From: a bacterium
GTDB taxonomy: Bacteria > Sysuimicrobiota > Sysuimicrobiia > Sysuimicrobiales > Kaftiobacteriaceae
NCBI GenBank assembly: GCA_044868695.1
Contig: JBIOWP010000053.1
Coordinates: forward strand, 35,103-99,102
DNA: 64,000 nt
Direction of reading: 5' to 3'
Part shown: positions 7,536-55,170 of the stretch, piece by piece
Position numbering within the stretch: the first letter of the stretch is position 1
Layout of the letters: each line of letters opens with the position of its first letter
Notes under the pieces: generated by a model
Seen by the model: only the letters and a program-made list of their open reading frames with translations
What the model was told of the DNA's origin: nothing
The model's database searches: none
Translations under genes and position numbers: made by a program

Positions 7536-8743
7536 TGAGCCGGTACGGAGAGAACGGTGGACGCGCGGCCGCGGATATCGCGGTCCGCGCTCCGGCGGGT
7601 GTGGGCGGTCCCCTGCGGGTGGAGGTGATCGAGGATGTTGGACGCTTCCGCGCGCTCCGGGACGAATGGACCGCGCTCCTCGAGCGCAGCGCAGCGGACG
7701 GCCTCTTCCTTACCTGGGAATGGCTGTTCACGTGGTGGAGACACCTGTCCGGCGGCGCCCGGCTTCACGTCCTCGCCGTCTGGTCGGATGGGGAGATGGT
7801 CGGACTCGCGCCGCTCCTCCTCCGGCGGCGGCGGGCGCTGGAGGCGCCATTTCCGGTTTTGGAATTCCTGGGCGGAACCGCTGGGTCCGACTACCTGGAC
7901 CTGGTTCTACGATCCGGATCAGAATCGCAGGCTGTGGATGCCCTCGCCGATTATCTCGGCGCCGAGAAGCTCGCACTTCGCCTGACGCAGGTCCGCCCCG
8001 GTTCGTCCGCAGCTGTGCTTGCCGCCGAGCTGGAGCGCCGCGGATGGTGGCTTGACGCCGTCAGCACGGAAGTGTGCCCGCTCGTGACGTGGCCGGCGCC
8101 GTCGTGGGACTCCTATCTGGCGACCCTCACGTCGAAAGACCGGGTCGACTTCCGTCGGCGTCTCAACAACCTGAGCAAGCAGTTCGAGGTCCGCTTCGAA
8201 CAGGCCGAAACGGAGGAGGGGCGTCGAGAGACGCTGCGCGCGTTGTTCGCGCTCCATGACAGCCGGTGGCGGGAGCGAGGAGGCTCCACGGCCCTCCACA
8301 CCCCCGCGCTCCGGTCCTTCCATGACGAGGTGACCGCTCTGGCGCTGACGCGCGGGTGGCTGCGACTCTACCTGCTGGTCCTCGACGGCCAGCCGGTCGC
8401 GGCACAGTATAGCTTCAGATATCGCGGGACATTCTACGACTACCAGAAGGGGTTCGACCCGAGCTACTGCCGGCACGGCATCGGGCTCATCACCGTCGGG
8501 CTGACAATCAAGCGCGCGATCGAGGAAGGCGCAGCTGAGTATGACTTCCTCCATGGCGCCGAGCCATACAAGTTCCGGTGGGCAGGCCAGGTGCGTGAAC
8601 TGAGCCGGCTCGAGCTTTTCCCTCCTGGCGCGCGTGGGGCCACCTACCGGCTGCTTGTGGCGGGGGGCAGCAAAGCGAGAAAGGCTGTGCGAAAGGTCGT
8701 GGGCGATGTTCTGGCAGATCGTCTCACCGGTCGCCGGGGATGA
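7532..8743 (+). CDS. GNAT family acyltransferase (CelD/BcsL-like)
   Basis: FLTWEWLFTWW, SDYLDL, YQKGFDP, YDFLHGAEPYKFRW. Confidence 0.85.
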   Translation: MMSRYGENGGRAAADIAVRAPAGVGGPLRVEVIEDVGRFRALRDEWTALLERSAADGLFLTWEWLFTWWRHLSGGARLHVLAVWSDGEMVGLAPLLLRRRRALEAPFPVLEFLGGTAGSDYLDLVLRSGSESQAVDALADYLGAEKLALRLTQVRPGSSAAVLAAELERRGWWLDAVSTEVCPLVTWPAPSWDSYLATLTSKDRVDFRRRLNNLSKQFEVRFEQAETEEGRRETLRALFALHDSRWRERGGSTALHTPALRSFHDEVTALALTRGWLRLYLLVLDGQPVAAQYSFRYRGTFYDYQKGFDPSYCRHGIGLITVGLTIKRAIEEGAAEYDFLHGAEPYKFRWAGQVRELSRLELFPPGARGATYRLLVAGGSKARKAVRKVVGDVLADRLTGRRG

Positions 8744-42644: not shown

Positions 42645-43544
42645 CTAGTGGAGCTTCTGGTCGCGCGCGCCCGGCACATCGCAGTACCAGGCGGCCAGGC
42701 GGGCAAAGGACAGGATCGGCGGCAGCGAGGCGCGGATGGAGGCGGCGATGCGCTCCGGCGCCGCCAGCCCGCTGCCGGTGAGCAGCTGCCACCGTGACTC
42801 CACCGCCGCGCCGAGGTGCAGGGCCAGTTCCATCGTCACCAGGTTTGCGTCGACCAGGGGCACGAAGACCTCCCACCGCCGGCTGGGCCGCGGGATGTCG
42901 AAGATGTTGAGCATCGCCTTCGCGATGCCCGTGGCGGCGCCGGCGGCGTTGGCGAACCAGCCAATGATCTGCCCCAGCGACTCCGGATCATGCCCCGCCG
43001 CGTCGGCGTTGCGGGTCGCGGCCTCCAGGACCGCCGAGGAGGCCAGGATGCGCGCCAGCCGCCACCCGATGCGGACGGGATCGAGCGGCCGGGGAGGCTG
43101 AGGCAGCACAAAACCCGGGCTGCCGGGCAGGCCGGGGCCGAGGTTGCGTGCCTGTTGGATGGCTTCCTTCGCATCCTCGAGAATCGACGCCTTCTCGTGA
43201 TCCATCCGGGCGGCCGCCAGCGCACGGAACGCGTCCGCCGCTTCGGGGTGATTCGTGACGATCGGCTGCGCGCCGGTCAGGATCTCGTGAATCACCGGCA
43301 GGATGTGCGTGTTCAGCGCAAACGGCATCAGGATCCCCGGCGCATCGTCCAGCGGATTCGCGCCGCCCAGCCGCTCCAAATAGTCGGTCATCTCATCTTC
43401 GGTGAGGCGGTCTAAGAACAGCAGCGCGATTTCGATGTCGCTGTCTGCCCAGGTGCGCTCGTCGGCGTACTTCCCGTACAGGTACACGGCGGCGACGTCG
43501 GGTTCATGGGCGAAAAAGGCCTTGAGAGCAGAGAAGGCGCTCAC
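42645..43544 (-). CDS. Fusion of minimal nucleotidyltransferase-like and DUF86/HEPN-like domains, both with degenerate catalytic motifs
   Basis: VAAVYLYGKYA......SDIEIALL (cf. FGS.A......SD.D.A); C-terminal IPRPSRRWEVF..L.....ELALHLGAAVESRWQLLT resembles DUF86. Confidence 0.6.
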   Translation of the reverse strand: MSAFSALKAFFAHEPDVAAVYLYGKYADERTWADSDIEIALLFLDRLTEDEMTDYLERLGGANPLDDAPGILMPFALNTHILPVIHEILTGAQPIVTNHPEAADAFRALAAARMDHEKASILEDAKEAIQQARNLGPGLPGSPGFVLPQPPRPLDPVRIGWRLARILASSAVLEAATRNADAAGHDPESLGQIIGWFANAAGAATGIAKAMLNIFDIPRPSRRWEVFVPLVDANLVTMELALHLGAAVESRWQLLTGSGLAAPERIAASIRASLPPILSFARLAAWYCDVPGARDQKLH

Positions 43545-43603
43545 GCCACCATCGTACTACCGGACTCATCAATTGCGGGGTTTGAATTGCGGATTGTGAG
43601 ACT

Positions 43604-44017
43604 TCATTCCGCGCTCATGCGCGGGAGACTCTCCCGGACGGCGGCGAGCAGTTCCATCGGGTTGAACGGCTTGGTCAGGATGCGGTCGGCTCCGGACTGC
43701 TGCGCGCGGGTCAGCATCTGCGGGGTCCCGAACCCCGTGATCAGCACCACCCGGATCGCCGGGAGTTTGGCCTTGGCATGCTCGAGCACCTCGAGGCCGG
43801 AGATCCCGGGCATGCGGATGTCGGAGATCATCAGATCGAACGCATCCTGCTGTAGCCTGACAAGCGCGTCCTCCCCGCTGGGCGCGGTCGTGACGGTGTA
43901 TCCGGCGCGGGTCAACACCCGGGCGCACAGGTCGCGGATCGACTCTTCGTCGTCAACGACCAGGATGCGCGCGGCAGCCACTCTGGAGGGCTGCGCCGAC
44001 TGCACGGGGCCGTTCAT
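43604..44017 (-). CDS. Single-domain response regulator (REC)
   Basis: [24 protein letters not shown]. Confidence 0.92.
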
Positions 44018-45966
44018 GCGTGGGCCACCGGCAGGGTGATGGTGAAGCGCGTCCCCCGGCCGGGCGCGCTGTTGACCGCGATCGACCCACCGTGCCGCTC
44101 CACGATGCGCTTGCTGATCGGCAGGCCGAGCCCCGTACCTTTGCCGTCCTCCTTCGTGGTGAAGAACGGATCGAAGATGCGGTCGAGCTGTTCCGTCGGG
44201 ATGCCGACGCCGGTGTCCTGGAAGGCGATCTCGACCCGCGGGCCGGTCCCGTTGCCGCCGACCTCGCGGGTGGTGATTTCAACGGCACCGCCATCCGGCA
44301 TCGCATCGATGGCGTTGTTGAGGATGTTGATGAACACCTGTTTGAGCTGGTTGAGGTCGCCCATGATCTGGCGGACCGAGGGATCCAGCTTCGACGCGAT
44401 GCTGACGTTCTGGGTCTCTGCCCGGCGGCGGATCAGCGGCAGCACGCTTTCGATGGCCTCGTTGATGTGGGTCTGCTCCATCGCCGAGTCGGTCTGGCGA
44501 GCGTAGCCCAGCAGGTCGCGCACGATGGCGCGCGCGCGCAGGGCTTCCTTTTCGATGACTTCCAGGTCGGCCCGTTTGGTATCGTCCGCCGCGGTTTCGC
44601 TGAGGATAAGGGAGGCGTAGCCCAACACGCTGGTCAGCGGGTTGTTGATCTCGTGCGCGATGAACGCCGCGAGTTCGCCGATCGTGGCCAGCTTGGCGGA
44701 CTGCATCAACTGGAACTGCGTTTGCTCCAGCATCGCCATCTGCCGCTGGAGGTTGCTGAACAGCTGCGCCTTCTCCACCGCCACCGCTGCCTGGCTGGCC
44801 ATGGTGGACAGCAGGTTCGTCTCCTGAGGGGACAGCACCTGGCGTGTCCCGACGATGACCAGACCCACCGCTCGCTCGCCGACCGCCATGGGGATGGCCA
44901 CCACCATGGTGTCGTAGCGCAGCGGGCCGTATTGGGTCAGCTGGGTGATTTCCTCGGTGTGCTCTGCCTGCCGGTAGACCTGCGGTCCCCGCAACTGGAG
45001 CAGGCGGCGGAGGGCAGGATCCGCGGCGCTCCGCTGAAACGGCGGAAACTCCTCTTCCGCGGTGCGCCACAGCCCGAACTCGATCGTGTCCGTGGCAGGG
45101 CTGTAGACGCCGACCCCAACCACGTCGACCGAGGGGATCTTGCGCACCTGGGCGTGCAGCGCGTCGTACACCTGCGCCAGGTCCAGGCTGCTGGTGAGCG
45201 CCCGCGCCAGTTCATTCAGGCTGGCCAGTTGCTGTGCCCGGCCCTCGGCCTCCTGCTTGCTGCGCTGGATGCGCTCGGCGTCCTCGATCTGCATGCGCAG
45301 CATCTGGGAGAGGCCGATCAGCGGGAGCATCAACAGCACCGTGCGCCAGGGGTTGACGATCCAGAAGTCTGCCACCACCGCGCCCAGCCAGATCAGCACC
45401 ATCTCCCGGTAGAAGCTCGACCGCGAGATGACCCCAACTTGCCCAAAGGGCTTGTTGGCGGCGAGGGTGATGGCGAGCGTGACCAGCGCGCCGTTCACAG
45501 CGTAGAAGATTGTGCCGGCGAGGAATGCCGCCGCATACCACTGGATTGCCAGGACGCCTTCGGCTGCGGCCGGCCGGGTCAGTGTCCAGACCGCCTCGGC
45601 CATCGCGACGGAGAGGATGTGCTGGGCGATGTTGAACGCCCCCTGGTACCAGGGCAGTTCGCGCCGCTTGAACCAGTACGCGGAGAAGGTGATGAGGACG
45701 AGGACAATGGTGTTTCCAATGGGGAACAGCAGAATGGTGGCGACGATGACGGCGTTGATCAGCGACCAGGCGATGCCCTGGCGGCCGGGCATGATGACCC
45801 GGACGCCGACCAGCTGGGTGAGGAGCGCCGTGCCGATGAAGACGAAGAAGGGCAGGTCCAGCCGCGCCGCCGCCCCCGGGAGCTGCGGCAGCACCGCCGC
45901 GAGGACGCCGCCGGCGATGATGACGCCGAGGACGTAAATCCGGGCTGGCAGAGAAAGGTTTTTCAT
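44014..45966 (-). CDS. Sensor histidine kinase with multi-TM N-terminal sensor and GAF domain (NtrB-like transmitter)
   Basis: About 7 TM segments in first 220 aa; [45 protein letters not shown]. Confidence 0.92.
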
Positions 45967-46051
45967 CGGTGTACCATCATGAACGCAAATGGCCCGGGGG
46001 CCGCCCGGTCAGACCCGGCGGCCGCCGGGATGGACTCCGAGATTAGATTAG

Positions 46052-46077
46052 CCCCTGGCGGGGTGGCCCGCCAGGGG
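46052..46077 (-). terminator. Stem-loop right after peptide gene 2 (attenuator or mRNA stabiliser)
   Basis: CCCCTGGCGGG-GTGG-CCCGCCAGGGG 11-bp stem; no clear U-tract. Confidence 0.5.
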
Positions 46078-46084
46078 GCGCGGT

Positions 46085-46234
46085 CTACTCCCAGGCTTCG
46101 CTGGCTGCGTCGAACATTTCCCAGGTCGCCGACTCCCAGGTCGCTGACTCCCAGGTGGCGGAGCCCCAGGATACCGATGCCGCCGCGAACATCGCGAGTG
46201 CGAACGTGACTGCGGCGGCCAGAATCTTTCTCAT
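46085..46234 (-). CDS. 49-aa secreted SATWE-repeat peptide, copy 2
   Basis: GGGAGGG RBS; MRKILAAAVTFALAMFAAA-SVSWG-SATWE-SATWE-SATWE-MFDAA-SEAWE. Confidence 0.88.
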   Translation of the reverse strand: MRKILAAAVTFALAMFAAASVSWGSATWESATWESATWEMFDAASEAWE

Positions 46235-46282
46235 CGTCGATCCCTCCCGTGGGTCGAATCGCGTTGCTACCCATAGAATGGA

Positions 46283-46297
46283 GCAAGATTGGTGCCA
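46283..46297 (-). promoter_or_regulatory. Sigma54 -24/-12 promoter for peptide copy 2 and kinase operon
   Basis: TGGCAC-CAATC-TTGC on minus strand. Confidence 0.85.
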
Positions 46298-46395
46298 CAA
46301 CGCCCGGGAAATGCCCACTTTCAAGAAGCTTCCGAGAATTGTTATGCCCGAATCTGAGGGGGTCGAGCGCGGGACCAGGGGGGCCGGCCGGACAA

Positions 46396-46430
46396 CACGA
46401 CGAGGGGGTCCGGTGGACCCCCTCGTCGTG
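46396..46430 (-). terminator. Perfect 16-bp stem-loop after peptide gene 1
   Basis: CACGACGAGGGGGTCC-GGT-GGACCCCCTCGTCGTG. Confidence 0.6.
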
Positions 46431-46460
46431 ACATGCGTGATGTCTCAGACCTTCGGCGAT

Positions 46461-46610
46461 CTACTCCCAGGCTTCGCTGGCTGCGTCGAACATTTCCCAG
46501 GTCGCCGACTCCCAGGTCGCGGACTCCCAGGTGGCGGAGCCCCACGACACGGAGCTGGCAGCGGCCAGCATCAGGATCGAGAGCGCGAAGGCGGCAATGA
46601 CTTTCCGCAT
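46461..46610 (-). CDS. 49-aa secreted SATWE-repeat peptide, copy 1
   Basis: GAGGAG RBS; MRKVIAAFALSILMLAAAS-SVSWG-SATWE-SATWE-SATWE-MFDAA-SEAWE. Confidence 0.88.
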   Translation of the reverse strand: MRKVIAAFALSILMLAAASSVSWGSATWESATWESATWEMFDAASEAWE

Positions 46611-46722
46611 TGATTTACTCCTCTTTTTCGCGGGATAGACCCGCCATCTCGCCGGTGAGGAACCGCATGAATGCTGCCTTCCGAATCGAGATGTCAATCG
46701 GTCTCCACAAGACGGCTCGCTG

Positions 46723-46751
46723 ACTGTAACACACGTCACACACACTGTCAA
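46723..46751 (-). promoter_or_regulatory. Sigma70-type promoter for peptide copy 1
   Basis: TTGACA (46751-46746)-N17-TACAGT (46728-46723) with extended TG. Confidence 0.7.
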
Positions 46752-46831
46752 CGCAACTTCTGTTCCGTTCACCCTGTCTATCGACACCCTACCCAAAAGC
46801 TTGAGCCGGTAGGCCAGCCGACACCTCCCGG

Positions 46832-46846
46832 TGGCACCGGAGTTGC
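46832..46846 (+). promoter_or_regulatory. Sigma54 -24/-12 promoter
   Basis: TGGCAC-CGGAG-TTGC upstream of FlgN-like gene. Confidence 0.85.
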
Positions 46847-46897
46847 TCTTACTCCTCGCGGACCATTCCCACCTCAACGATGCGAGGGTGTCAGGCG

Positions 46898-47278
46898 ATG
46901 GATGAGGCGACCGCACGGCTTCGAGCGATTCTTCAGCGTGAAGTATCCGTCCACCGGGAGCTCCTGCGCCTGGCCCGTTCGCGCCACATGCTCCTGCGGC
47001 AGGGGCGGTTCGAGGAAGCTGCCGACCTGGCGGTGCTCGAGGCCGCGTTTGTCGTCACCCTGCGGGACCTGGAAGCCAGGCGCGGCCGGCTGGCCGGACA
47101 GCTGCCCGGGGCAGACCGCGTCATCGTCCGGTCCACCCGCAAGATCGCCTCTCTTGTTCGCGGGTTGGGCGCGGTCGAACGGGCGAACCGGACGCTGTGG
47201 TCGCAGCACGTGCTTGCGCCCGCCCTGACCGTGGTGGCGACCGCGCATCGGCGGGGCGATGCCGCGAGGCTGAACTAA
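46898..47278 (+). CDS. FlgN-like helical chaperone
   Basis: L..IL..E...HRELL.LA......L......................L..LE..R ... N..L pattern; 126 aa. Confidence 0.55.
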   Translation: MDEATARLRAILQREVSVHRELLRLARSRHMLLRQGRFEEAADLAVLEAAFVVTLRDLEARRGRLAGQLPGADRVIVRSTRKIASLVRGLGAVERANRTLWSQHVLAPALTVVATAHRRGDAARLN

Positions 47279-47298
47279 GAGTCGTGGACAGCCGATAA
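47271..47298 (+). promoter_or_regulatory. Putative sigma28 (FliA/WhiG) promoter
   Basis: TGAA-N16-GCCGATAA; perfect sigma28 -10 octamer. Confidence 0.6.
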
Positions 47299-47307
47299 GG
47301 ATAGTAT

Positions 47308-47408
47308 CCCGCCGCCTCAGTGCTCTGAACGCGGGAACCGGGTGCAGGCGAACCTCAGGGGGGACGCTGCGACGCCGACCGCACGGAGCCGAGGCGGCGG
47401 GCGTTTTT
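47308..47408 (+). ncRNA. Candidate structured RNA or leader (about 94-nt rod-like hairpin plus U-tract)
   Basis: CCCGCCGCCTC/GAGGCGGCGGG, GCTCTG/CGGAGC, GCGG/CCGC and GCAG-GCG/CGC-TGC nested pairings, then CGTTTTT. Confidence 0.45.
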
Positions 47409-47483
47409 GTCCGCGTCTAATCCCCCGGACTCAGAGGCATAACTTCGCAGGACACCATTTCCAGCCCCAAGAAGAGAGCCCCG

Positions 47484-48842
47484 ATGGTAACCAACGGGAC
47501 ATCGATCCTCGTTGTCGACGACGAGGAGAATCTGCGCAACCTGTTAAGCAAGATCCTCCGCGATCAGGGGTACGCGGTTGAGACGGCCGTGGACGGGGAA
47601 GAAGGGCTGGCCAAGTACAAGGCCGGCCGCTTCGACCTGATGCTCCTGGATCTTAAACTTCCCAAACTGGATGGCATGAGCGTGTTGCGGTCGGTCATGG
47701 AGCACGATGCCGACGCGCTGGTGATCATCATCACGGCGTTCTCTACGATCGACACGGCCATTCAGGCGATCAAGCTCGGCGCCTACCATTACGTGGGCAA
47801 GCCGTTCCGTCCGGAAGAACTCATGATCGTGGTCAACCAGGCGCTTGAACGCGCCCGGCTGGTGAGGGAGAACCGCGCCCTCCAGCAGGAGCTGATGCGC
47901 ACCTTCAAGTTTGAGGGGATCGTCGGGGACTCCCCGAGGATGCGTGACGTGCTCAACCTCGCGGCCGCCGTCGCTCCCACCGACGCCACCGTCCTGATCT
48001 ACGGCGAGACGGGGACGGGGAAGGAACTGCTGGCCCGGTCCATTCACTTCCAGAGCCCGCGCGCCAACGGCCCCTTCGTCGTGGTCAACTGCGGGGCGAT
48101 TCCCGAAACACTCCTGGAGACGGAGTTGTTCGGTCACGAGAAAGGCGCGTTCACCAGTGCGGTGAGCAGCCGCGTTGGGCGGTTTGAGCGGGCGCAGGAC
48201 GGGACCATCTTCCTGGATGAGATCGGCGACATGAGCGTGGCGATGCAGGTGAAGCTCCTGCGCGTGCTTCAGGAGCGCGTCATCGAACGCGTCGGCGGCG
48301 CCAAACCGATCGACGTCAACGCGCGCGTCGTGGCCGCCACCAACAAAGACCTTAAGAAGACGATCGCCGAGGGGCAGTTTCGCGACGACCTCTACTACCG
48401 CCTGGCGGTCATGCCGATCGAGCTGCCGCCGCTCCGCGAGCGCAAGGAAGACATCCAGACCCTCGCGTACCACTTCTTGAACAAGTACGCCGTGGCGTTC
48501 GGCAAGCGTATCAAAGGCTTCACCCCGGCGGCGATGAAGAAACTCCGCAGCCACCACTGGCCCGGCAACGTGCGCGAACTCGAATACACCATCCAGCGCG
48601 TGGTGATCCTCGCCACCCGGGAGCTCATCGATACTGAGGAGATCTGGCTGGACGAACAACCGTCCCCCGGCTCAAAGTTTCCCAAGGCGTTTTCCCTGGG
48701 GGAGGTCGAGCACCGGCACATCAACGCCGTGCTCAAGATGACCGGATGGAATCTTGACGAAGCGGCGCGGGTCCTCGGCATCGACGCGGCCGCCCTCAAG
48801 GAGAAGATTCAGAAGTACAACATCACTGCAGAAACGGGATGA
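47484..48842 (+). CDS. Sigma54-dependent response regulator (NtrC/AtoC family bEBP)
   Basis: [40 protein letters not shown]-terminal Fis-like helix. Confidence 0.95.
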
Positions 48843-48893
48843 CGGCGTCGTCTGGACGCCGCCGGCCCCGCCGGCATGGCCGCTGGCTAGGCG

Positions 48894-48908
48894 TGGCATG
48901 AAACTTGC
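48894..48908 (+). promoter_or_regulatory. Sigma54 -24/-12 promoter for HD-GYP/rpoN operon
   Basis: TGGCAT-GAAAC-TTGC. Confidence 0.8.
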
Positions 48909-48973
48909 TCTTGTACCGTGCACCGATTGACTGACGGGGTGCGGCGCAGCGCTGCACGGAGTGAGGTGGCAGG

Positions 48974-50446
48974 GTGCTCCCCAAAGCCAGGATCTTGATC
49001 GCCGACGACGAGGCCTCCATCCGGGACCTGTGCTCCAGGATCCTGGGTCGCATCTACGAGGTCTCGGTGGCGCCCGACGGCCCGACGGCGATCGCCATGG
49101 CCCGGACCCAGGCCCCGGACCTCCTGTTGACCGACATCCGGATGCCCGGCCTGACCGGTCTGGAGGCGGCCCGGCAGATCGTGACGGAGGCGCCCGAAGT
49201 CTCCGTCGTGGTGATGACCGGGTTCAGCGAATTCGACAGCCTGCTGGAGACGGTCAAGCTCGGCGTGAACGGGTTCCTGATGAAGCCATTCACGCCGGAC
49301 GACCTGCGCAAGACCGTCGAGGAAGGCCTCCGCAAGGGACTGTACTTCAAACGCAATACGCGCCTGCGGGCGCTGCAGCCGCTGCTGGATCTGCGCGGCA
49401 ACCGTCTGGGGGAAGCCGACCAGGGCCGGGTCTTTGAGATCATCACCGAGACGGTGCTGCACGAGCTCAGCGCCGACACGGTGACGCTGGTGGCGCTGGA
49501 TGAGGATGGGCGTGAACTCATGGTCACGACGTCTGCCAGCGGCACGGAGGCCGGGGGCGTCACGACGACGTCACAGGTCGGCGCGGCGCGCGCATCGGTG
49601 TCATGGAAGGTGGCCCCCGAGGACTTGATGGGTGTGGACGGGATGCCGCCGGCGGCAGTCGAGGATGACGGGCGGACCCTGTCGGTGCCGCTGCAGTCGG
49701 CCGGCCACGTGGTTGGCGTCTTGACGGCGGCGCGGGAAAGCGCGTTTGCCGGCGCCGATCGCGATGTGCTCCGCGTGATCGCCGCCCAGGGCGCGATCGC
49801 CCTCGAGAACATCCGGCTGTTCAAGCGGCTGCGTCGTTCGTACTGGAACACGGTGTACGCGCTCGCGGCGACCGTGGACCTGCGCGACCATCCCACGCGC
49901 GAACACTCCAACCGGTCGGTGGACTACGCCATGGCCATCGGCACGCGCCTGGGGCTGGACGCGGACCGCCTGGAAGATCTGAAGACGGCCGCGCTGCTCC
50001 ACGACATCGGCAAGATCGGCATCGGCGACGGCGTCCTGCTCAAGCCTGGACACCTCACCTCTGAGGAATATGACTGGATGAAGACGCATACCCTCATGGG
50101 GGCGAAGATTCTCGCCATGGCAGATTTCCCAACCCGCGTCGTGGAAGCGGTCCTGTTCCACCACGAGCGATTCGATGGATCGGGCTACCCGATGGGATTG
50201 CGGGGCGACCAGATCCCGGTGGAGGCCCGCATTCTCGCCGGAGTCGATGCGCTCGAGAGCATGACCAGCACGCGGTACTACCGCGTGGCGATGCCGCTGG
50301 CGCAGGCGCTGGCAGAGTTGGAGCGGGGCCGGGGGACACAGTTCGATCCCGATGTGATCGAGGCCGTGCTGGCCGGCCTGCGGGAGGGCGACCTGCACCT
50401 GCTGACCCCCGACGGCGCGCCGGTCGGCGCGTCGGAGCCGGCGTAA
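48974..50446 (+). CDS. REC-GAF-HD-GYP cyclic-dinucleotide phosphodiesterase
   Basis: REC (TDIRMPG); EHSNR, LLHDIGK, HHERFDGSGYP. Confidence 0.92.
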   Translation: MLPKARILIADDEASIRDLCSRILGRIYEVSVAPDGPTAIAMARTQAPDLLLTDIRMPGLTGLEAARQIVTEAPEVSVVVMTGFSEFDSLLETVKLGVNGFLMKPFTPDDLRKTVEEGLRKGLYFKRNTRLRALQPLLDLRGNRLGEADQGRVFEIITETVLHELSADTVTLVALDEDGRELMVTTSASGTEAGGVTTTSQVGAARASVSWKVAPEDLMGVDGMPPAAVEDDGRTLSVPLQSAGHVVGVLTAARESAFAGADRDVLRVIAAQGAIALENIRLFKRLRRSYWNTVYALAATVDLRDHPTREHSNRSVDYAMAIGTRLGLDADRLEDLKTAALLHDIGKIGIGDGVLLKPGHLTSEEYDWMKTHTLMGAKILAMADFPTRVVEAVLFHHERFDGSGYPMGLRGDQIPVEARILAGVDALESMTSTRYYRVAMPLAQALAELERGRGTQFDPDVIEAVLAGLREGDLHLLTPDGAPVGASEPA

Positions 50447-50464
50447 CCGACAGAGGCGACGCTC

Positions 50465-51832
50465 ATGTCGACGGGACCGCACATCCAACCGAGTGTCGGC
50501 GCAAGAATCGGGCTGCACCAGCGCATGGTGCCCAAGCTCATGATGGTGAATGCGCTGCTGGTCCTGCCGCTCAACCAGCTGCTCGCCCGCATCGAGCAGG
50601 AACTCTCCGAAAATCCCGCCCTGGAGCTTGATGAGCTGCCGGCGTCCAGCGAACCCGAGTGGTCGGCCGACGAGGCGGGACAGTCGCTGGCGACCTGGAC
50701 CTCTGACGAGGAAGAGTTCGACCCATTCTCGCGCATGGCGGCCCCGGTGTCCCTCCAGGAACATTTGATGATGACGCTGCAGGCGCAGGGGCTGTCGGCC
50801 CGTGACCACGCGATCGGCGAGCGTCTGATCGGCTACATCAATGAAAACGGGTATCTGGAAGCCACGACGGCGCAGGTGGCCCAGGAGTTGAATGCCGAGG
50901 TGGAGGAAGTGGACGCGGTGCTGGGCCGGCTCCAGCGGTTTGAGCCGATCGGGGTCGGCGCCCGCAACGTGGAGGAGTGCCTGCTGCTGCAGCTGCGGGT
51001 CATGGAGTCGAATGCGGCCAACCATCTGGCGCAGCGTATCGTCGAAACGCACCTGCCCGACCTGGCGGCGCACCGCTTTGAAAAAGTGGCCAAAGACCTG
51101 GGATCCACCGTGGCCGAGGTAAAGGACGCCCATGAATTCGTCAAGGCCAACTGCTACCCGTACCCCGGGGAACGCTACCGCAGCGAGCAGGACGGGGGAC
51201 GGGTGCGGCCGGCCGAAGTCGCCCGGCCCGATGTCGTCATCCGGCGCACCGAGGACGGGTTCGCGGTCGAGCTGGTCCGGCAGGACGCGTTCTCGCTGCG
51301 CGTGAACGCGTTCTATGACGATCTCCGGCGGCAGATGCGCCGCGCCGCGTCCGGGTACTCGGACAAGTCGCGCGAGCACGTCCGGGACTACGTCAGCCGC
51401 GCCAAGCTGTTCATCGAGGCCCTGCAGCGGCGGAACTGGACGTTCGCGAACATCGTCCAGACGATCATCCGCACCCAGTGGGAGTTCATCGAGCGCGGCG
51501 AGGCCCACATGAAGCCGCTGACCAAGGCCATGATCGCCGCCGAGCTGGGCATCAGCGAATCGACGGTGAGCCGGGCGCTGGACGGGAAGTTCGCGCAGCT
51601 CCCCGCCGGGCGCGTCGTCAGCTTCGACCTCTTCTTCGACCAGTCGCTGCCGACAAAGGAGCGGATCCGCGCCATCATCGCCGCAGAAACGCAGCCGCTG
51701 ACCGATGAGCAGATCGCCCACACGCTGACGGCCGAGGGCGTCAAGATCGCGCGCCGCACCGTCACGAAGTACCGCGAGGAGATGAACATCTCCCCGTCGA
51801 CCTCGCGCGGCCCCCTGGCGGAAGCCAAGTAG
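50465..51832 (+). CDS. rpoN: RNA polymerase sigma-54 factor
   Basis: ELSENPALE, EPIGVGAR, ISESTVSRA, RpoN box ARRTVTKYRE. Confidence 0.95.
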   Translation: MSTGPHIQPSVGARIGLHQRMVPKLMMVNALLVLPLNQLLARIEQELSENPALELDELPASSEPEWSADEAGQSLATWTSDEEEFDPFSRMAAPVSLQEHLMMTLQAQGLSARDHAIGERLIGYINENGYLEATTAQVAQELNAEVEEVDAVLGRLQRFEPIGVGARNVEECLLLQLRVMESNAANHLAQRIVETHLPDLAAHRFEKVAKDLGSTVAEVKDAHEFVKANCYPYPGERYRSEQDGGRVRPAEVARPDVVIRRTEDGFAVELVRQDAFSLRVNAFYDDLRRQMRRAASGYSDKSREHVRDYVSRAKLFIEALQRRNWTFANIVQTIIRTQWEFIERGEAHMKPLTKAMIAAELGISESTVSRALDGKFAQLPAGRVVSFDLFFDQSLPTKERIRAIIAAETQPLTDEQIAHTLTAEGVKIARRTVTKYREEMNISPSTSRGPLAEAK

Positions 51833-51843
51833 CACGAAACTTC

Positions 51844-51982
51844 GGGATTAGGGATCCGGGATTAGGGATCAGTAACTACCCGCCGCGTCCCACTCCCTGG
51901 CCCTCACTCCATCGAAAACGTCCCCGTTGCTCATACGAGATTCTGGCTCGTTGCGTTTTCGGATCCCTGATCCCTGATCCCG
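51844..51982. repeat. Inverted 7-bp tandem repeats (GGGATTA/GGGATCA vs TGATCCC)
   Basis: GGGATTAGGGATCCGGGGATTAGGGATCA ... GATCCCTGATCCCTGATCCC. Confidence 0.7.
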
Positions 51983-51995
51983 TAGTTTCGGGGTG

Positions 51996-52010
51996 TGGCA
52001 CGCCAGTTGC
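51996..52010 (+). promoter_or_regulatory. Sigma54 -24/-12 promoter for GAF-GGDEF/fliA operon
   Basis: TGGCAC-GCCAG-TTGC. Confidence 0.88.
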
Positions 52011-52046
52011 TCCCATTTTGGTAGCACCGTTTGAGGAGGAAGCAGC

Positions 52047-53093
52047 ATGCCACGCCGCGCTCGACGCAGTCGGTCACACCCCGGGAACGGATCGGCCCAA
52101 ACCGGCCGGGATCCTGGGCGTCCTGCCGACCACTCCGACGTGAATGGACATCACCTCGCCCAGGAGGCGGAGGAGATGGCCCTGCGGCTCGAGTGCGCCA
52201 AGCTGGGGGACGAAGAGCTTCCCCTGGGTCTGGCGTACAAGCGCTTCCTGGATCTGGCGCATCGGATCATTCCGTTCGAGCATGGGACGCTCTATGTGAC
52301 CGACTGGACCACCGGCCGTTTGCTGCCGGTGGCCGTGCGCGGCAGCCACATCGAGCTTGCCGACCGCATCCGTTTTGCGCGCGGCTCCGGGCTGTCCGCC
52401 TGGGTGGCTCAAGAGGGCCGGGCCGTGGTGATTCCGGATCCGGCGGACACCGATGACCGCTCCCCGTTTGCCGACGAGGCGCTGCGTGCATTCCTCGCCT
52501 TTCCGTTGGTGCAGCAGGGTGTCGTCGCGGGCGTGGTGGCGCTGGCCCGCACCGCCCAGACGTTCGCCGAGGACGAGTTCGAGCGCCTGGGCCGGTTGGC
52601 GGACGCGCTGTCACAGACGCTGTCGCGGATGCGCCGCGAGGCCCGGCTGCGCGAACTGATCTACCTCGACAGCGAGACCGGACTGCGAAATCGCCACCAC
52701 TTTCTGGCGCGCCTGGAAGAGGAACTGCAGCGGGCGCAGCAGCACGCGACCGAGTTTTCCGTGGCGCTGCTGGAGCTGGACGCCGCTGCCGAGGAGCCGG
52801 CCCGCTCCGAACTGCTCCAGTCGTTCACCCAGCGGCTGGCCGACGGCATGCGGACCTGCGACATCGTGGCCAGCCTTGGGAGCGGACAGTTTGGCGTGCT
52901 GCTGGCGGGCGTGAACCGCGACAAGGCCGCGTCGATTGTCGACCGGGTGGCGCGCGTCGCGCTGGCCGACCTCACTCCAGGCTTCGGGACCACGGTGCGC
53001 CTGCGCATCGGGTTCGCGGAGAGCGCCGTGCCGCCCAGCTCACCGGATGCCCTGCTCCAGCAGGCTGCGTCAGCCCTGGCCGAGATCGCCTAG
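52047..53093 (+). CDS. GAF + degenerate GGDEF protein
   Basis: GSGLSAWVA GAF; DSETGLRNR; RTCD-IVASL-GSGQF in place of RxxD-x5-GGDEF. Confidence 0.85.
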   Translation: MPRRARRSRSHPGNGSAQTGRDPGRPADHSDVNGHHLAQEAEEMALRLECAKLGDEELPLGLAYKRFLDLAHRIIPFEHGTLYVTDWTTGRLLPVAVRGSHIELADRIRFARGSGLSAWVAQEGRAVVIPDPADTDDRSPFADEALRAFLAFPLVQQGVVAGVVALARTAQTFAEDEFERLGRLADALSQTLSRMRREARLRELIYLDSETGLRNRHHFLARLEEELQRAQQHATEFSVALLELDAAAEEPARSELLQSFTQRLADGMRTCDIVASLGSGQFGVLLAGVNRDKAASIVDRVARVALADLTPGFGTTVRLRIGFAESAVPPSSPDALLQQAASALAEIA

Positions 53094-53103
53094 AGGAGTG
53101 TCG

Positions 53104-53913
53104 ATGGCCGAGCCTCCCCACTCTCTTGCCGCGCTGTGGCAGGCGTTCAAACAACAGCGCACCCCGGCGCTGCGGGAGCATGTGGCCCTCGCCTACCTAC
53201 CGTTGGTGCGGACCCAGGCGCGCCAGATGGCCGGCCGCGTCCCGCCGTCGGTCAGAAGCGAAGACTTGGAAGGCTACGGCATGATCGGACTGCTCGAAGC
53301 CATTGACCGGTTCGACCCGGACCGGAGCATCCCGTTTGAGGTGTTTGCGCGGCTGCGCATTCGCGGCGCGATGTACGACTATCTGCGCACGCTGGACCTG
53401 CTCCCGCGTGTGGCCAGGCGCAACGTCCACCGGGTGCTGGCCGAGGTCAGCGCCCTCACCCGGCGGCTCGGCCGCAAGCCCAGCGACGATGAACTCGTGC
53501 GGGCCACCGGGCTCGAGGCGCGGGCCCTCAGCAAAGTGCTGGCGGACGCGCAAGCAGGGCTGCCGGTCTCGTTGGACGACTTCGATGACGGCAACCGGCT
53601 GCCCGACGCGCTGGTCCGCGATGCCGGAGGCGAGGTGGCCGGCGCCATCGAGCGGCAGGCACGAGACAGTGAACTGTGGCGGGCCATCGAAGTCCTCCCG
53701 GTCCGCCATAAGGTCGTCATCGGCCTGCATTACTGCGAGGGGCTGACGCTGTGGTCGATCGGCCGCGTGCTGCGTGTGACGGAATCTCGTGTCAGCCAGA
53801 TGCGGAGCGAGGCGCTGCAGATGCTGCGCACTCATCTAGCGCTGCGCACGTGGCTGGACGCCGAGGGTCAGCGCCGCTCCCGGGGCGGGCCCGACGCCAC
53901 GGTGGTGGCCTGA
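53104..53913 (+). CDS. fliA: FliA/WhiG-family sigma-28 factor
   Basis: EDLEGYGMIGLLEAIDRFDP, RIRGAMYDYLRTLD, LGRKPSD, VTESRVSQ. Confidence 0.88.
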   Translation: MAEPPHSLAALWQAFKQQRTPALREHVALAYLPLVRTQARQMAGRVPPSVRSEDLEGYGMIGLLEAIDRFDPDRSIPFEVFARLRIRGAMYDYLRTLDLLPRVARRNVHRVLAEVSALTRRLGRKPSDDELVRATGLEARALSKVLADAQAGLPVSLDDFDDGNRLPDALVRDAGGEVAGAIERQARDSELWRAIEVLPVRHKVVIGLHYCEGLTLWSIGRVLRVTESRVSQMRSEALQMLRTHLALRTWLDAEGQRRSRGGPDATVVA

Positions 53914-53952
53914 GCCCGGCTACGAGACGCCGGAATGGGGCACAACACTAGC

Positions 53953-54417
53953 ATGACCTCAGAACACCTGAAACCTGTCCTCGCTGAGCTGCGCCGCCAG
54001 GCCGCGGCGCAGGCCGCACTGCTGCTGTCTGGAGACGGCGTCGTGCTGGGGGCGGTGGGCGAGGCCCACGCCGACCTCGACGGCCTGGCCGCCTATGCGG
54101 CCAGCAGCGTGATGGTGTGCGAACGGTTGGGCGAGAGCGCGTCGTTCGGGCCCCCGGAGGCCGTTCTGGTGGTGTTCGGGAGCCGCGCGGTGGTCATGGC
54201 GCCGCTCGGTCCCGCCGTCGCCGTGCTGGTCGGCACCGCGGCCCAGATGGGCTCGCTGCGGCTGACCCTCATCCGGTATCTGGATGAGCTGGCCGCCGCC
54301 CTGAAAGGCGAGCGCCGCACCGCACCCAAAGCCGACAACGGCGCGTCCTCCGAAGGCGACGATTCTTCCTCTGACGACAGTTTCACCGGCATCCGGATCA
54401 ATCCAGGGCTCGTCTAG
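53953..54417 (+). CDS. Roadblock/LC7 (MglB-like) domain protein
   Basis: AALLLSGDGVVL...LAA...AQMGSLRL pattern. Confidence 0.75.
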   Translation: MTSEHLKPVLAELRRQAAAQAALLLSGDGVVLGAVGEAHADLDGLAAYAASSVMVCERLGESASFGPPEAVLVVFGSRAVVMAPLGPAVAVLVGTAAQMGSLRLTLIRYLDELAAALKGERRTAPKADNGASSEGDDSSSDDSFTGIRINPGLV

Positions 54418-54465
54418 TCGGGTCGTTCACGCACCCCACGTCCGTCCCGGTTCCCCCCAATGGAA

Positions 54466-54480
54466 TGGCACACAACTTGC
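54466..54480 (+). promoter_or_regulatory. Sigma54 -24/-12 promoter for pilin
   Basis: TGGCAC-ACAAC-TTGC. Confidence 0.88.
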
Positions 54481-54506
54481 TGATGTGTGTGGCAGGAGAA
54501 GCCATC

Positions 54507-54938
54507 ATGGTCCGAAACCACCGCGGGTTCACACTGATCGAGCTGCTGATCGTCGTCGCGATCATCGCGATCCTGGCGGCGATCCTGATCCCCAACTTCC
54601 TGCGGGCCCGCGCGCAGTCGCAGGTGGCATCCACCAAGGGGAACCTCAAGAACATCGCCACGGCCCTGGAGAGCTATTTCGTGGATTTTGGACGGTATCC
54701 GGCGCTTGCGACCAGTCTCCAGCCCACCTACACCCGGACGCTGCCGAGAGATCCGTGCACAGGGGCCGCGTTTGGCATGGGGGGCGGGTATCTCTATGGG
54801 CCGAGCGGAAGCCCCGCCACCGACTATGTCCTGCGCACGAACTGGTCGGCCATGGGCGCCGGCGCCGCGTGCTTTGCCACCAACGGGGACCTCAACGTCC
54901 GGTACACGCCGGGCGGCGGCCTGGAGAGCATCCCGTAG
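54507..54938 (+). CDS. Type IV pilin / pseudopilin with class III signal peptide
   Basis: HRG/FTLIELLIVVAIIAILAAILIPNF; ALESYFVDFGRYP; C-terminal Cys pair. Confidence 0.92.
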   Translation: MVRNHRGFTLIELLIVVAIIAILAAILIPNFLRARAQSQVASTKGNLKNIATALESYFVDFGRYPALATSLQPTYTRTLPRDPCTGAAFGMGGGYLYGPSGSPATDYVLRTNWSAMGAGAACFATNGDLNVRYTPGGGLESIP

Positions 54939-54965
54939 AACGTCGCCAACTCCACGCAGCTGCTA

Positions 54966-55014
54966 CCCCCGGCCCCGATCCCCGATCCCTCGACCCCGGA
55001 CCCCCGACCCCCAA
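54966..55014. repeat. 7-bp tandem repeats (CCCCGAT-like)
   Basis: CCCCGAT CCCCGAT CCCTCGA CCCCGGA CCCCCGA. Confidence 0.65.
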
Positions 55015-55094
55015 ACTTCGACGGAACTCCCATAGGGATTGCGGTAAGCCTGAGCGTGGTACTTTCGTTAGAGTTGCCGTCATAGTTGCACGGC

Positions 55095-55109
55095 TGGCAC
55101 CAAAGTTGC
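55095..55109 (+). promoter_or_regulatory. Sigma54 -24/-12 promoter for fimbrial-like operon
   Basis: TGGCAC-CAAAG-TTGC. Confidence 0.88.
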
Positions 55110-55170
55110 TGATTCTGGGGGTAGGACCCCGACACGGGGGTATCACATGATCCTCACAGGAGGCACTCAG

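Follow-up and report, generated by a model that had tools for sequence, protein, structure and literature searches.

We analysed a window of 64,000 nucleotides (nt) of bacterial DNA (GenBank assembly GCA_044868695.1, contig JBIOWP010000053.1, forward strand from position 35,103 to 99,102), in which two small genes, pepA and pepB, encode predicted exported peptides built from units that end in Thr-Trp-Glu (TWE) and lie directly upstream of a histidine kinase with a MASE9-like membrane sensor. On balance, we favour a reading in which the exported TWE peptides act on this MASE9 kinase within a sigma-54 autoinduction loop, the export, processing and binding of the peptides being the steps that we infer. 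The features on which this reading is built are the following, with positions counted within the window.

46461..46610, minus strand: pepA, the first TWE-peptide gene, 49 amino acids (aa), with a predicted signal peptide, SVSWG, three SATWE units and an end in ...EAWE
46085..46234, minus strand: pepB, the second TWE-peptide gene, 49 aa, with the 30-aa core of pepA and a different signal part
46396..46430, minus strand: G+C-rich hairpin 3' of pepA, terminator-like with a T-poor tail, which the consensus terminator scan did not list
46052..46077, minus strand: G+C-rich hairpin 3' of pepB, read by eye
44014..45966, minus strand: sensor histidine kinase, 650 aa, with a MASE9-like domain of eight transmembrane (TM) segments, GAF, HisKA and HATPase_c
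45283..45966, minus strand: MASE9-like domain of the kinase, aa 1 to about 228
43604..44017, minus strand: stand-alone REC protein, 137 aa, with a 4-nt overlap between its start and the kinase stop; conserved at all 17 loci

The peptide genes are co-directional with, and directly upstream of, orthologous kinase and REC genes in 18 of 18 assembled loci. An earlier, sequence-only reading of this region had proposed a search across genomes for co-occurrence of peptide and kinase genes, and the pair indeed proved to be conserved. The same reading described two 49-codon open reading frames (ORFs) with ribosome-binding sites (RBS) and identical cores, which we recovered at exactly these coordinates, with a GGAG-type RBS 7-9 nt 5' of each start. 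Both peptides consist of MRK, 15-16 hydrophobic residues and SVSWG-SATWE-SATWE-SATWE-MFDAA-SEAWE. Between the two genes, 11 of 19 aligned residues differ in the N-terminal parts; the 30-aa cores are identical in amino acids and match at 86 of 90 nt, with four differences that are all synonymous (4.0 synonymous and 0.0 non-synonymous differences). These four sites had been taken as a sign of selection on the peptide. The count of sites was correct, yet the conclusion drawn from it did not stand: gene conversion of the 3' halves is likely, because synonymous divergence is far lower in the core (4.0/18.7) than in the signal part (12.2/15.0) and because the paralogous cores (86/90 nt identical) are closer to each other than orthologous cores are (62-63/90). 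As such, the pattern could stem from gene conversion, from selection for one product or from the two together, and does not tell them apart. Selection is better supported by S-x-S-W-G and T-W, which do not vary among 37 sequences of the family.

Throughout this family, mature parts are near-identical within a genome and signal parts are not, with pooled proportions of non-synonymous and synonymous differences between paralogues (pN/pS) of 0.04/0.27 for the mature part and 0.35/0.58 for the signal part. Each copy keeps its type of promoter from genus to genus despite the closer similarity of paralogous cores, which makes the duplication an old one, with the 3' halves in concerted evolution. Hairpins equivalent to that of pepA are found 3' of the upstream peptide gene in other loci, and an Rfam scan of positions 43000-48000 gave nothing above chance. 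Soil metagenomes contain the DNA of the window: contigs from four soil DNA runs (two studies) differ from it by two letters, both intergenic (46315 and 46446), which says little, and these contigs break at the duplicated peptide core.

In all, we read 40 peptide genes from 18 genomes and six genera, all in one family that was assigned, with the help of the available portion of PMC11604079, to the uncultured phylum CSP1-3/Sysuimicrobiota. Calidihabitans tengchongensis, which PMC11604079 lists in its enrichments, has two of the peptide genes (locus L037/L015). A six-frame search of 60 related genomes gave clear homologues in 14, with 2-3 tandem copies each, and the diverged copies at the kinase-orthologue loci of genus g4, missed by this single-sequence search, were found on inspection. 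A profile made from 37 peptide sequences (alignment A2) matched 17 of the 21 other genomes of the family and the genome of the window; the remaining six families of the phylum, with 72 genomes, gave a single weak match, which is probably spurious. Searched against 1.84 billion representative proteins, it gave 33 matches, of which 30 are small peptides of like build that add the unit variants GGTWE and GVTWE. Another match, P0034 (1405 aa, WNGATWE repeats, E 7e-4), was taken as a chance match, its repeat being different and longer. A protein search with a single peptide returned only the query, because most such small ORFs are clustered apart or uncalled. Pfam and NCBIfam hold no family for the TWE peptides, a literature search on TWE motif strings found nothing relevant, and a profile search of the PDB and a search of a language-model atlas gave nothing meaningful for the peptide; in the sequence-only reading, too, the peptide family was not recognised. 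The two peptide genes are real and conserved, and are more than chance ORFs.

The residues that are invariant in alignment A2 are the S, S, W and G of S-x-S-W-G, which directly follow the hydrophobic stretch, and the T and W of one x(A/V)TWE unit, the E of which is kept in more than 90%. Each peptide contains 1 to 4 units, the last x(A/V)TWE being C-terminal or nearly so, and the linkers are free to vary. Genus g4 and a number of metagenome members carry one unit only, a C-terminal GATWE or SVTWE that comes after 15-40 residues of Gly/Asn/Pro-rich linker, and the peptides of genus g2 end in ...GTIW, without the Glu. These comparisons support the x(A/V)TWE unit, rather than the whole core, as the conserved element, which would fit a unit-based ligand. 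Two loci depart from the usual gene number. One locus of genus g6 (L016, G015:C204) has a single peptide gene, some 120 nt before the kinase start, which shows that the copy number can fall to one. In a g4 genome (L031, about 8040-8230, minus strand), a third peptide gene lies 26 nt after the first, apparently without a promoter of its own, and encodes SLSWA in place of SxSWG, a (Gly-Asn)n linker and a C-terminal GATWE.

Substrates of signal peptidase I have a positive n-region, an h-region of about 7-15 residues and small residues at positions -3 and -1 from the cleavage site. Among the 39 peptides counted here, position -1 is Ser in 39 of 39 and position -3 is Ala in 33, Gly in 4 and Val in 2; Lys or Arg is found within the first six residues, and the hydrophobic part up to the site spans 13-16 residues. 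The TWE peptides thus have the features of Sec/signal peptidase I substrates, and the Sec-type signal peptide of the sequence-only reading is upheld as far as such features go, that is, by the -3 and -1 residues. AlphaFold2 modelled residues 2-20 of the peptide as a single helix and gave its repeats a per-residue confidence score (pLDDT) of 55-58, i.e. no usable fold, which speaks neither for nor against the sensing of the peptides by the kinase.

A second linkage between this repeat and this sensor family was found outside the phylum. One match of the peptide profile (P0027) is a 572-aa subtilase with about 23 C-terminal units of the form (N/G)(V/I/L)(T/S)WE. A metagenome search for DNA encoding WE-xx-TWE-xx-TWE, i.e. 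three consecutive units, returned at least 79 readable loci. Among the matches listed, at least 18 loci encode S8 subtilases with C-terminal xVTWE tails of 8-23 units, and no small TWE peptide is found; 61 of the at least 79 loci were rejected as low-complexity DNA, out-of-frame repeats or unrelated GTWxxG-repeat proteins. Of these 18 listed subtilase loci, 17 have a MASE9-HD-GYP gene as the next gene downstream on the same strand, and the 18th has 115 nt left, so that the order of subtilase and then MASE9-HD-GYP holds in 17 of the 17 informative loci listed. The pair is duplicated in tandem at two of the listed loci, and in L066 (250-6505) the subtilase stop and the MASE9 start overlap as ATGA. 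Other examples of the pair are L054:1719-4920, L087 and L085. The genes that flank such pairs are those of phosphate transport (PhoU_div/PHO4) and of a HAD hydrolase. Source names assign the TWE-tailed proteases to Limnocylindria/Chloroflexi, and 94 CSP1-3 genomes contained no close relative of the TWE-tailed subtilase.

Of the best 120 subtilase relatives, 119 carry at least four [TS]W[ED] units in the tail, and its units GVTWE, SVSWE, SVTWE and AVTWE are words of the peptides, SVSW included. Some 450 residues of the secreted enzyme precede the tail, and AlphaFold2 gave no usable fold for it (pLDDT below 50 for residues 474-530). To judge from these sequences, a TWE-repeat module, made of tandem units of the form (G/S/A/T)(V/A/I)(T/S)WE, is common to the peptides and the Limnocylindria subtilases, each adjoining a MASE9 gene; the units are too short to tell whether the two repeat sets share ancestry or converged. 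Nothing else is common to both architectures, as the kinase, GAF, REC and sigma-54 are found on one side and the protease and HD-GYP on the other, and this is our main ground for proposing that repeat and sensor work together. The pairing of peptide and sensor that the sequence-only reading had hypothesised is supported in that a further phylum, with another architecture, also combines MASE9 with this Trp-Glu pentapeptide repeat.

A Kyte-Doolittle scan of kinase residues 3-224 gave 7-8 hydrophobic segments and no long loop, and the arrangement described in the sequence-only reading, of peptide genes co-directional with and upstream of a multi-TM kinase without a large loop, followed by a REC protein, was found as described. 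The N-terminal 228 residues of the window's kinase have no Pfam MASE9 match even at E 10. The MASE9 model (PF20972, gathering score 24.3 bits) matches 4 of the 18 kinase orthologues, two of them above the cut-off with 34.5 and 24.6 bits; the language-model atlas relates the kinase sensor to MASE9 clusters with a score of 0.96; and hhalign of the kinase sensors against the N-termini of the MASE9-HD-GYP proteins gave a probability of 92% and E 6e-7 over 142 columns, by which the kinase and HD-GYP sensor sets are homologous. Based on these comparisons, the orthologous group of kinase sensors is filed here as a divergent MASE9. A scan with the sensor alignment of one genome for each of 185,579 species returned 16 loci, all already known from this family. 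A complex prediction of kinase residues 1-228 with the mature peptide scored 0.10 (mark 0.32) and was used neither for nor against the interaction.

MASE9 (PF20972) was defined by Galperin and Chou (10.1101/2021.11.05.467447), and the available portion of their paper names neither a ligand nor a partner gene. It argues that ligand binding by MASE9 takes place within the membrane, describes HD-GYP and GGDEF/EAL outputs and not a MASE9-GAF-histidine kinase, and in that portion makes no mention of a TWE link (10.1101/2021.11.05.467447). The kinases also vary in length: those of the window and of genus g5 (650 and 648 aa) are without a segment of about 120 residues between GAF and HisKA, which is present in the other genera (L016-L031; open frames of 765-832 aa).

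The promoters predicted around the peptide genes and in the divergent direction are as follows.

46282..46297, minus strand: sigma-54 promoter of pepB, TGGCACCAATCTTGCT, read as TGGCAC-N5-TTGCT, 47 nt 5' of the start codon
46832..46847, plus strand: sigma-54 promoter of the divergent operon (132-aa FlgN-like ORF, then activator), by pattern match
48894..48909, plus strand: sigma-54 promoter of the HD-GYP gene, by pattern match
54466..54481, plus strand: sigma-54 promoter of the type IV pilin gene, by pattern match; the pilin has the N_methyl motif
46723..46751, minus strand: sigma-70-like promoter of pepA, TTGACA-17-TACAGT with a TG extension
46611..46717, minus strand: conserved 5' leader of pepA, with a long-range stem G(A/G)AGACC...GGUCU-A-UC around a variable insert
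46778..46785, minus strand: conserved (G/T)(C/A)CGATAG motif 5' of pepA (GCCGATAG), present within 330 nt in 14 of 15 loci outside genus g4

Sigma-54 promoters are marked by GG and GC doublets 10 nt apart in the context TGGCAC-N5-TTGC(A/T). Scanning the window with the pattern YGGYAY-N5-TTGCT gave 7 matches, compared with 0.10 expected, and 6 of the 7 fall within 46282-55110, 5' of pepB, the FlgN-like/activator operon, the HD-GYP gene, the GGDEF gene, the pilin gene and a gene for a secreted protein. Across the family, each of the 21 intergenic regions that precede a second or third peptide gene has a sigma-54 element, and in genus g4 the first peptide gene also has one (2 of 2 loci read). A search of the 95%-complete genome for the sigma-54 activator domain (PF00158) yielded one strong match of 244.9 bits, the divergent NtrC-type gene, and the next match, of 47.5 bits, is Lon protease. 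As the only strong activator found in the genome, this NtrC-type regulator must serve all of the sigma-54 promoters. With a sigma-54 element before the gene, and rpoN and one activator in the genome, pepB has what a sigma-54-dependent gene would be expected to have, and the sigma-54 promoters together with the single, divergently encoded activator mark the peptides as outputs of the circuit, a point that the sequence-only reading had missed. Genome-wide, about 20 TGGCAC-N5-TTGCT sites (window 46282-55110; G000 contigs C115, C99, C75 and C64) cluster in this regulatory island and before genes for the pilin, pilT, a second sigma factor, an HTH-XRE protein and several secreted proteins. Read from these sites, the sigma-54 regulon is compact and centred on type IV pili and the turnover of cyclic di-GMP (c-di-GMP). 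Repeat runs of GGGATTAGGGATC / GATCCCTGATCCC and CCCCGATCCCCGATCCC at 51780-51990 and 54960-55090, upstream of the sigma-54 promoters of the GGDEF gene and orf173, are possibly sites of the activator or of another protein.

The first peptide gene is wired differently. TTGACA-17-TAcaGT precedes it at each of 15 loci from five genera and at none of the three g4 loci; since first-gene and later-gene promoters differ, one mature peptide would be made from two differently wired genes, one basal and one inducible. The stem in the pepA leader has 7 pairs, with no compensatory change and with 6 G-U/A-U switches at one pair. It is invariant in the same region of 14 loci, where it closes a variable insert of 0-60 nt, and may be bound by a protein or act in stabilisation or processing. 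The GCCGATAG motif resembles the -10 box of sigma-28 promoters and might be a target of the FliA/WhiG-family sigma factor of the window; as a genome-wide scan for sigma-28-type boxes gave 4 weak candidates and no regulon, this stays a guess.

The other genes of the neighbourhood that bear on the circuit are these.

46880..47278, plus strand: 132-aa helical ORF, FlgN-like at 21.4 bits against a cut-off of 30.5, i.e. below the cut-off
47484..48842, plus strand: NtrC-type response regulator (REC, sigma-54 AAA+, HTH_8), the only sigma-54 activator found in the genome
48974..50446, plus strand: REC-GAF-HD-GYP protein, with a sigma-54 promoter of its own
50465..51832, plus strand: rpoN (sigma-54), by domain scan
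52936-53913, divergent side: FliA/WhiG-family sigma factor, 202.6 bits in NCBIfam against a cut-off of 189.6
54465..54938, plus strand: type IV pilin, matching N_methyl
42645-43544, minus strand: 299-aa nucleotidyltransferase-like protein, with an N-terminal Pol-beta/MntA-like domain and 200 unassigned C-terminal residues

Synteny extends over the whole neighbourhood in all 17 other loci. The kinase side comprises the peptides, kinase, REC, nucleotidyltransferase-like gene, a LuxR-type gene and a gene with helix-turn-helix and tetratricopeptide repeats (HTH-TPR), and the divergent side the FlgN-like ORF, NtrC-type activator, REC-GAF-HD-GYP, rpoN, GAF-GGDEF, FliA/WhiG-type sigma factor, a Roadblock/MglB-like gene and the type IV pilin. 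Genus g2 has lost the LuxR-type and HTH-TPR genes and kept the peptides, kinase and REC. The HTH-TPR gene (HTH_3+TPR), which lies about 4 kb from the peptide genes and is never adjacent to them, was not found in 5 of 17 loci, namely three g2 loci, where a gene for an SLH protein stands instead, and L018 and L021, which end too close. Within genus g3, peptides, kinase sensor, activator and flanking nucleotidyltransferase are jointly missing from two genomes, and two more genomes without peptide matches (87% and 78% complete) still have the nucleotidyltransferase. In all 17 loci, the latter gene follows REC at a distance of 0.06 kb, and in genus g7 it is inverted. A homologue of the FlgN-like ORF was found by tblastn in 12 of 17 loci and in none of the three g4 loci, and flagellin (PF00669) and FlhA (PF00771) were not found in the genome of the window. 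As the sequence-only reading had noted, no maturase of the AgrB or ComQ type was seen among the 24 neighbouring ORFs, which were scanned against Pfam.

Taken together, these data suggest the following course of events. The pre-peptides of pepA and pepB would be exported by Sec and probably cut by signal peptidase I at (A/G/V)-x-S | (V/I)SWG, giving an acidic, Trp-rich peptide of about 30 residues that is built from x(A/V)TWE units. This peptide, or shorter pieces of it, would act from outside on the membrane-embedded MASE9 domain, and the kinase would then signal to the co-translated REC protein and, most likely, to the divergent NtrC-type activator, of which it is the likeliest partner to judge from gene position and from the type of the kinase core (AtoS/ZraS-like beside AtoC/ZraR-like). 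The activator would fire the sigma-54 promoters of pepB, its own operon, the HD-GYP gene, the GGDEF gene, the type IV pilin gene and pilT, while pepA would provide a basal supply of peptide from its sigma-70-type promoter. The sign of the feedback is presumed to be self-reinforcing, so that the peptide loop would switch surface and c-di-GMP behaviour. In the other architecture, the Limnocylindria subtilase may release its own TWE tail and thereby feed a c-di-GMP phosphodiesterase, which would make it a plausible processing enzyme in one of the two forms. A subtilase would be more likely to cut after Trp than after Glu; as, moreover, Trp is the last residue of the g2 peptides, the unit could equally well be E-x-x-T-W or x-x-T-W-E. 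More tentatively, and short of what we would call probable, x(V/A)TWE repeats might be a natural class of extracellular ligands for one branch of MASE9 in at least two soil-bacterial phyla, as free pre-peptides that autoinduce through a kinase and sigma-54 in CSP1-3 and as subtilase tails that feed MASE9-HD-GYP in Limnocylindria.

Several observations weigh against the sensing of these peptides by the kinase and should be considered when referring to it. The peptide genes are separate transcription units with hairpins of their own, outside the kinase operon. They belong to a regulatory cluster of 12-14 genes that is syntenic throughout the family, so that adjacency alone cannot single out the kinase as their partner within CSP1-3. 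Each of the two linkages represents one lineage and is therefore one event, which makes two independent events and not 35. The genome of the window contains three weaker MASE9-like genes with no TWE ORF nearby, which is why the TWE link is not general to MASE9. A comparison of shared k-mers upstream of six sigma-54 promoters found no common activator site. Finally, the order of the unit variants is conserved in the subtilase tails, where, for example, GVMWE is the eighth unit, and such conservation speaks for a module that acts as a whole rather than for a string of interchangeable pheromone units.

Some of these points also bear on an explanation that we consider unlikely and yet worth serious attention, namely that the peptide is only an output of the circuit: a secreted surface-active, matrix, adhesion or membrane-interface peptide that is used with type IV pili and is not sensed by the kinase, the subtilase tail then being an anchoring or matrix-binding module. 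It would agree with the conserved unit order of the tails, with a synteny that covers the whole cluster and not just the peptide-kinase pair, with sigma-54 promoters that also precede the pilin, pilT and several secreted proteins, and with the multiple copies, which look strongly expressed, each with an RBS and a hairpin; the alternation of V/W and T/E would moreover be expected to give an amphipathic strand. Such a role leaves unexplained why a rare repeat stands beside the same sensor family in a second phylum, with a different output domain and with translational coupling. The single C-terminal unit behind a Gly/Asn linker in genus g4 is likewise hard to square with a structural polymer, and the lack of a fold in AlphaFold2 points, weakly, the same way.

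We regard as improbable that the peptide is a membrane-retained modulator, in which an uncleaved, bitopic protein of 49 aa contacts the TM bundle of the kinase and gives feedback within the circuit instead of a signal between cells. MgrB on PhoQ and the pilin on PilS are analogues of such an arrangement, which would suit a circuit output whose gene adjoins that of the kinase, and also the single helix that AlphaFold2 predicts for residues 2-20. It would also suit the in-membrane ligand binding for which the authors of MASE9 argue in the available portion of their paper (10.1101/2021.11.05.467447). The hydrophobic part, however, has just 13-16 residues, and a good (A/G/V)-x-S site comes after it in each of the 39 peptides; it diverges freely between paralogues, whereas the exported part is conserved; and in the subtilases, which are secreted enzymes, about 450 residues lie between the N-terminus and the repeat.

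Some precursors of modified peptides typically contain short repeated aromatic motifs, and a Sec-type leader is unusual for such precursors. A role as a ribosomal natural-product or cofactor precursor, with Trp/Glu modified by an enzyme encoded elsewhere and the kinase unrelated or a partner in immunity or regulation, is very improbable, for despite those motifs and the nearby nucleotidyltransferase-like gene of 17 of 17 loci, the peptides have such a leader, NCBIfam, which is rich in precursor families, has no match, the nucleotidyltransferase flips its orientation in genus g7, and the 24 neighbouring ORFs include no radical-SAM, cyclase, prenyltransferase or peptidase-transporter gene.

To our knowledge, nearly all known cases of peptide signalling through membrane kinases come from cultivated Firmicutes. 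The TWE peptides and their MASE9 kinase are a candidate peptide-kinase system of an uncultured phylum, and neither the peptide family nor the sensor domain belongs to a known system; pepA and pepB would be a rare example of two copies of one peptide that are wired to different sigma factors. The circuit would further account for what the single sigma-54 activator of this small genome controls, i.e. type IV pili and c-di-GMP turnover. MASE9 is widespread, with no ligand or partner given in the available portion of 10.1101/2021.11.05.467447, and the double linkage offers a first candidate ligand. If the sensing of the peptides by MASE9 holds true, TWE repeats would be a previously unrecognised family of bacterial peptide pheromones and the first MASE9 ligand, with one signal coupled to two-component and c-di-GMP outputs.

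When compared with known systems, the closest peptide precursors are the Phr peptides of the Bacillus Rap-Phr (RRNPP) systems, in which a Sec-exported pro-peptide yields a C-terminal pentapeptide that is re-imported by Opp and binds cytoplasmic TPR receptors. The TWE peptides share with them a precursor of about 40-50 aa, a Sec-type leader, a variable pro-region and a C-terminal pentapeptide, and genus g4 and several metagenome members show exactly that build. Unlike Phr, their conserved partner is a membrane kinase, their units are often in multiple copies, there is no sequence similarity, and the nearby HTH-TPR gene is missing from three g2 loci that retain the peptides.

In AgrD/AgrC, ComC/ComD and ComX/ComP, a peptide gene lies by a polytopic kinase without a large outer domain and is induced by the circuit, and the TWE system resembles these in both respects. 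It differs from them in its Sec-type leader, in having no AgrB, ComQ or C39-ABC exporter gene among the 24 neighbouring ORFs, and in its AtoS/ZraS-type HisKA/HATPase_c kinase core, MASE9 sensor and sigma-54 output. Agr systems are recognised by an AgrB-family maturase, a Cys for the thiolactone and an HPK10-type kinase, and ComQXPA systems by a ComQ isoprenyl transferase gene beside a leaderless ComX. An Agr-type system was rejected here, as there is no AgrB among the neighbouring ORFs and no Cys in the core and the kinase has HisKA (PF00512), and so was a ComQXPA-type system, as no neighbouring ORF resembles a polyprenyl synthase and the peptides carry a Sec-type leader.

In PilS-PilR-PilA, a kinase and an NtrC-type activator control a sigma-54 promoter before the pilin, which the kinase senses in the membrane. 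The TWE system likewise combines a polytopic kinase, an NtrC-type activator and a sigma-54 promoter before a small exported protein with a hydrophobic N-terminus, and the window's own pilin gene also has a sigma-54 promoter. It differs in its MASE9 sensor and in that the peptides lack a prepilin motif (G|F..E) and a pilin domain; the identity of the peptides as type IV pilins or prepilins was rejected, as they have no family match and the true pilin of the window matches N_methyl, the G|F/M-x-x-x-E motif that comes after a short basic leader. The repeat also has some likeness to the pentapeptide-repeat proteins, which form a beta-helix from A(D/N)LXX units, namely a period of five residues with a small residue at i-2, a large hydrophobic one at i and Gly/Ser at i+2. 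Membership in that group was rejected, the only match being Pentapeptide_4 on the subtilase tail of P0027 (E 0.06, 13.9 bits against a cut-off of 38), with none on the peptides, and AlphaFold2 builds no beta-helix from TWE repeats.

As for Limnocylindria, the LapG-LapD system consists of a periplasmic protease that is held by a c-di-GMP-binding membrane protein, and here too the gene of a secreted protease is paired with that of a membrane protein from the c-di-GMP network. The protease, of the S8 type and not a Cys protease, and the membrane protein, a MASE9-HD-GYP enzyme, are unrelated to LapG and LapD. As a divergent MASE9, the kinase sensor would belong to the integral-membrane family of known MASE9 proteins, and the Limnocylindria partners are typical MASE9-HD-GYP proteins as described in the available portion of 10.1101/2021.11.05.467447. 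By analogy, the proposed logic of a peptide gene beside a polytopic kinase with autoinduction would be that of the Agr, Com and Phr systems. What is new, within the reach of our searches, is the peptide family, the repeat module and its connection with MASE9, the wiring through sigma-54 and the phylum.

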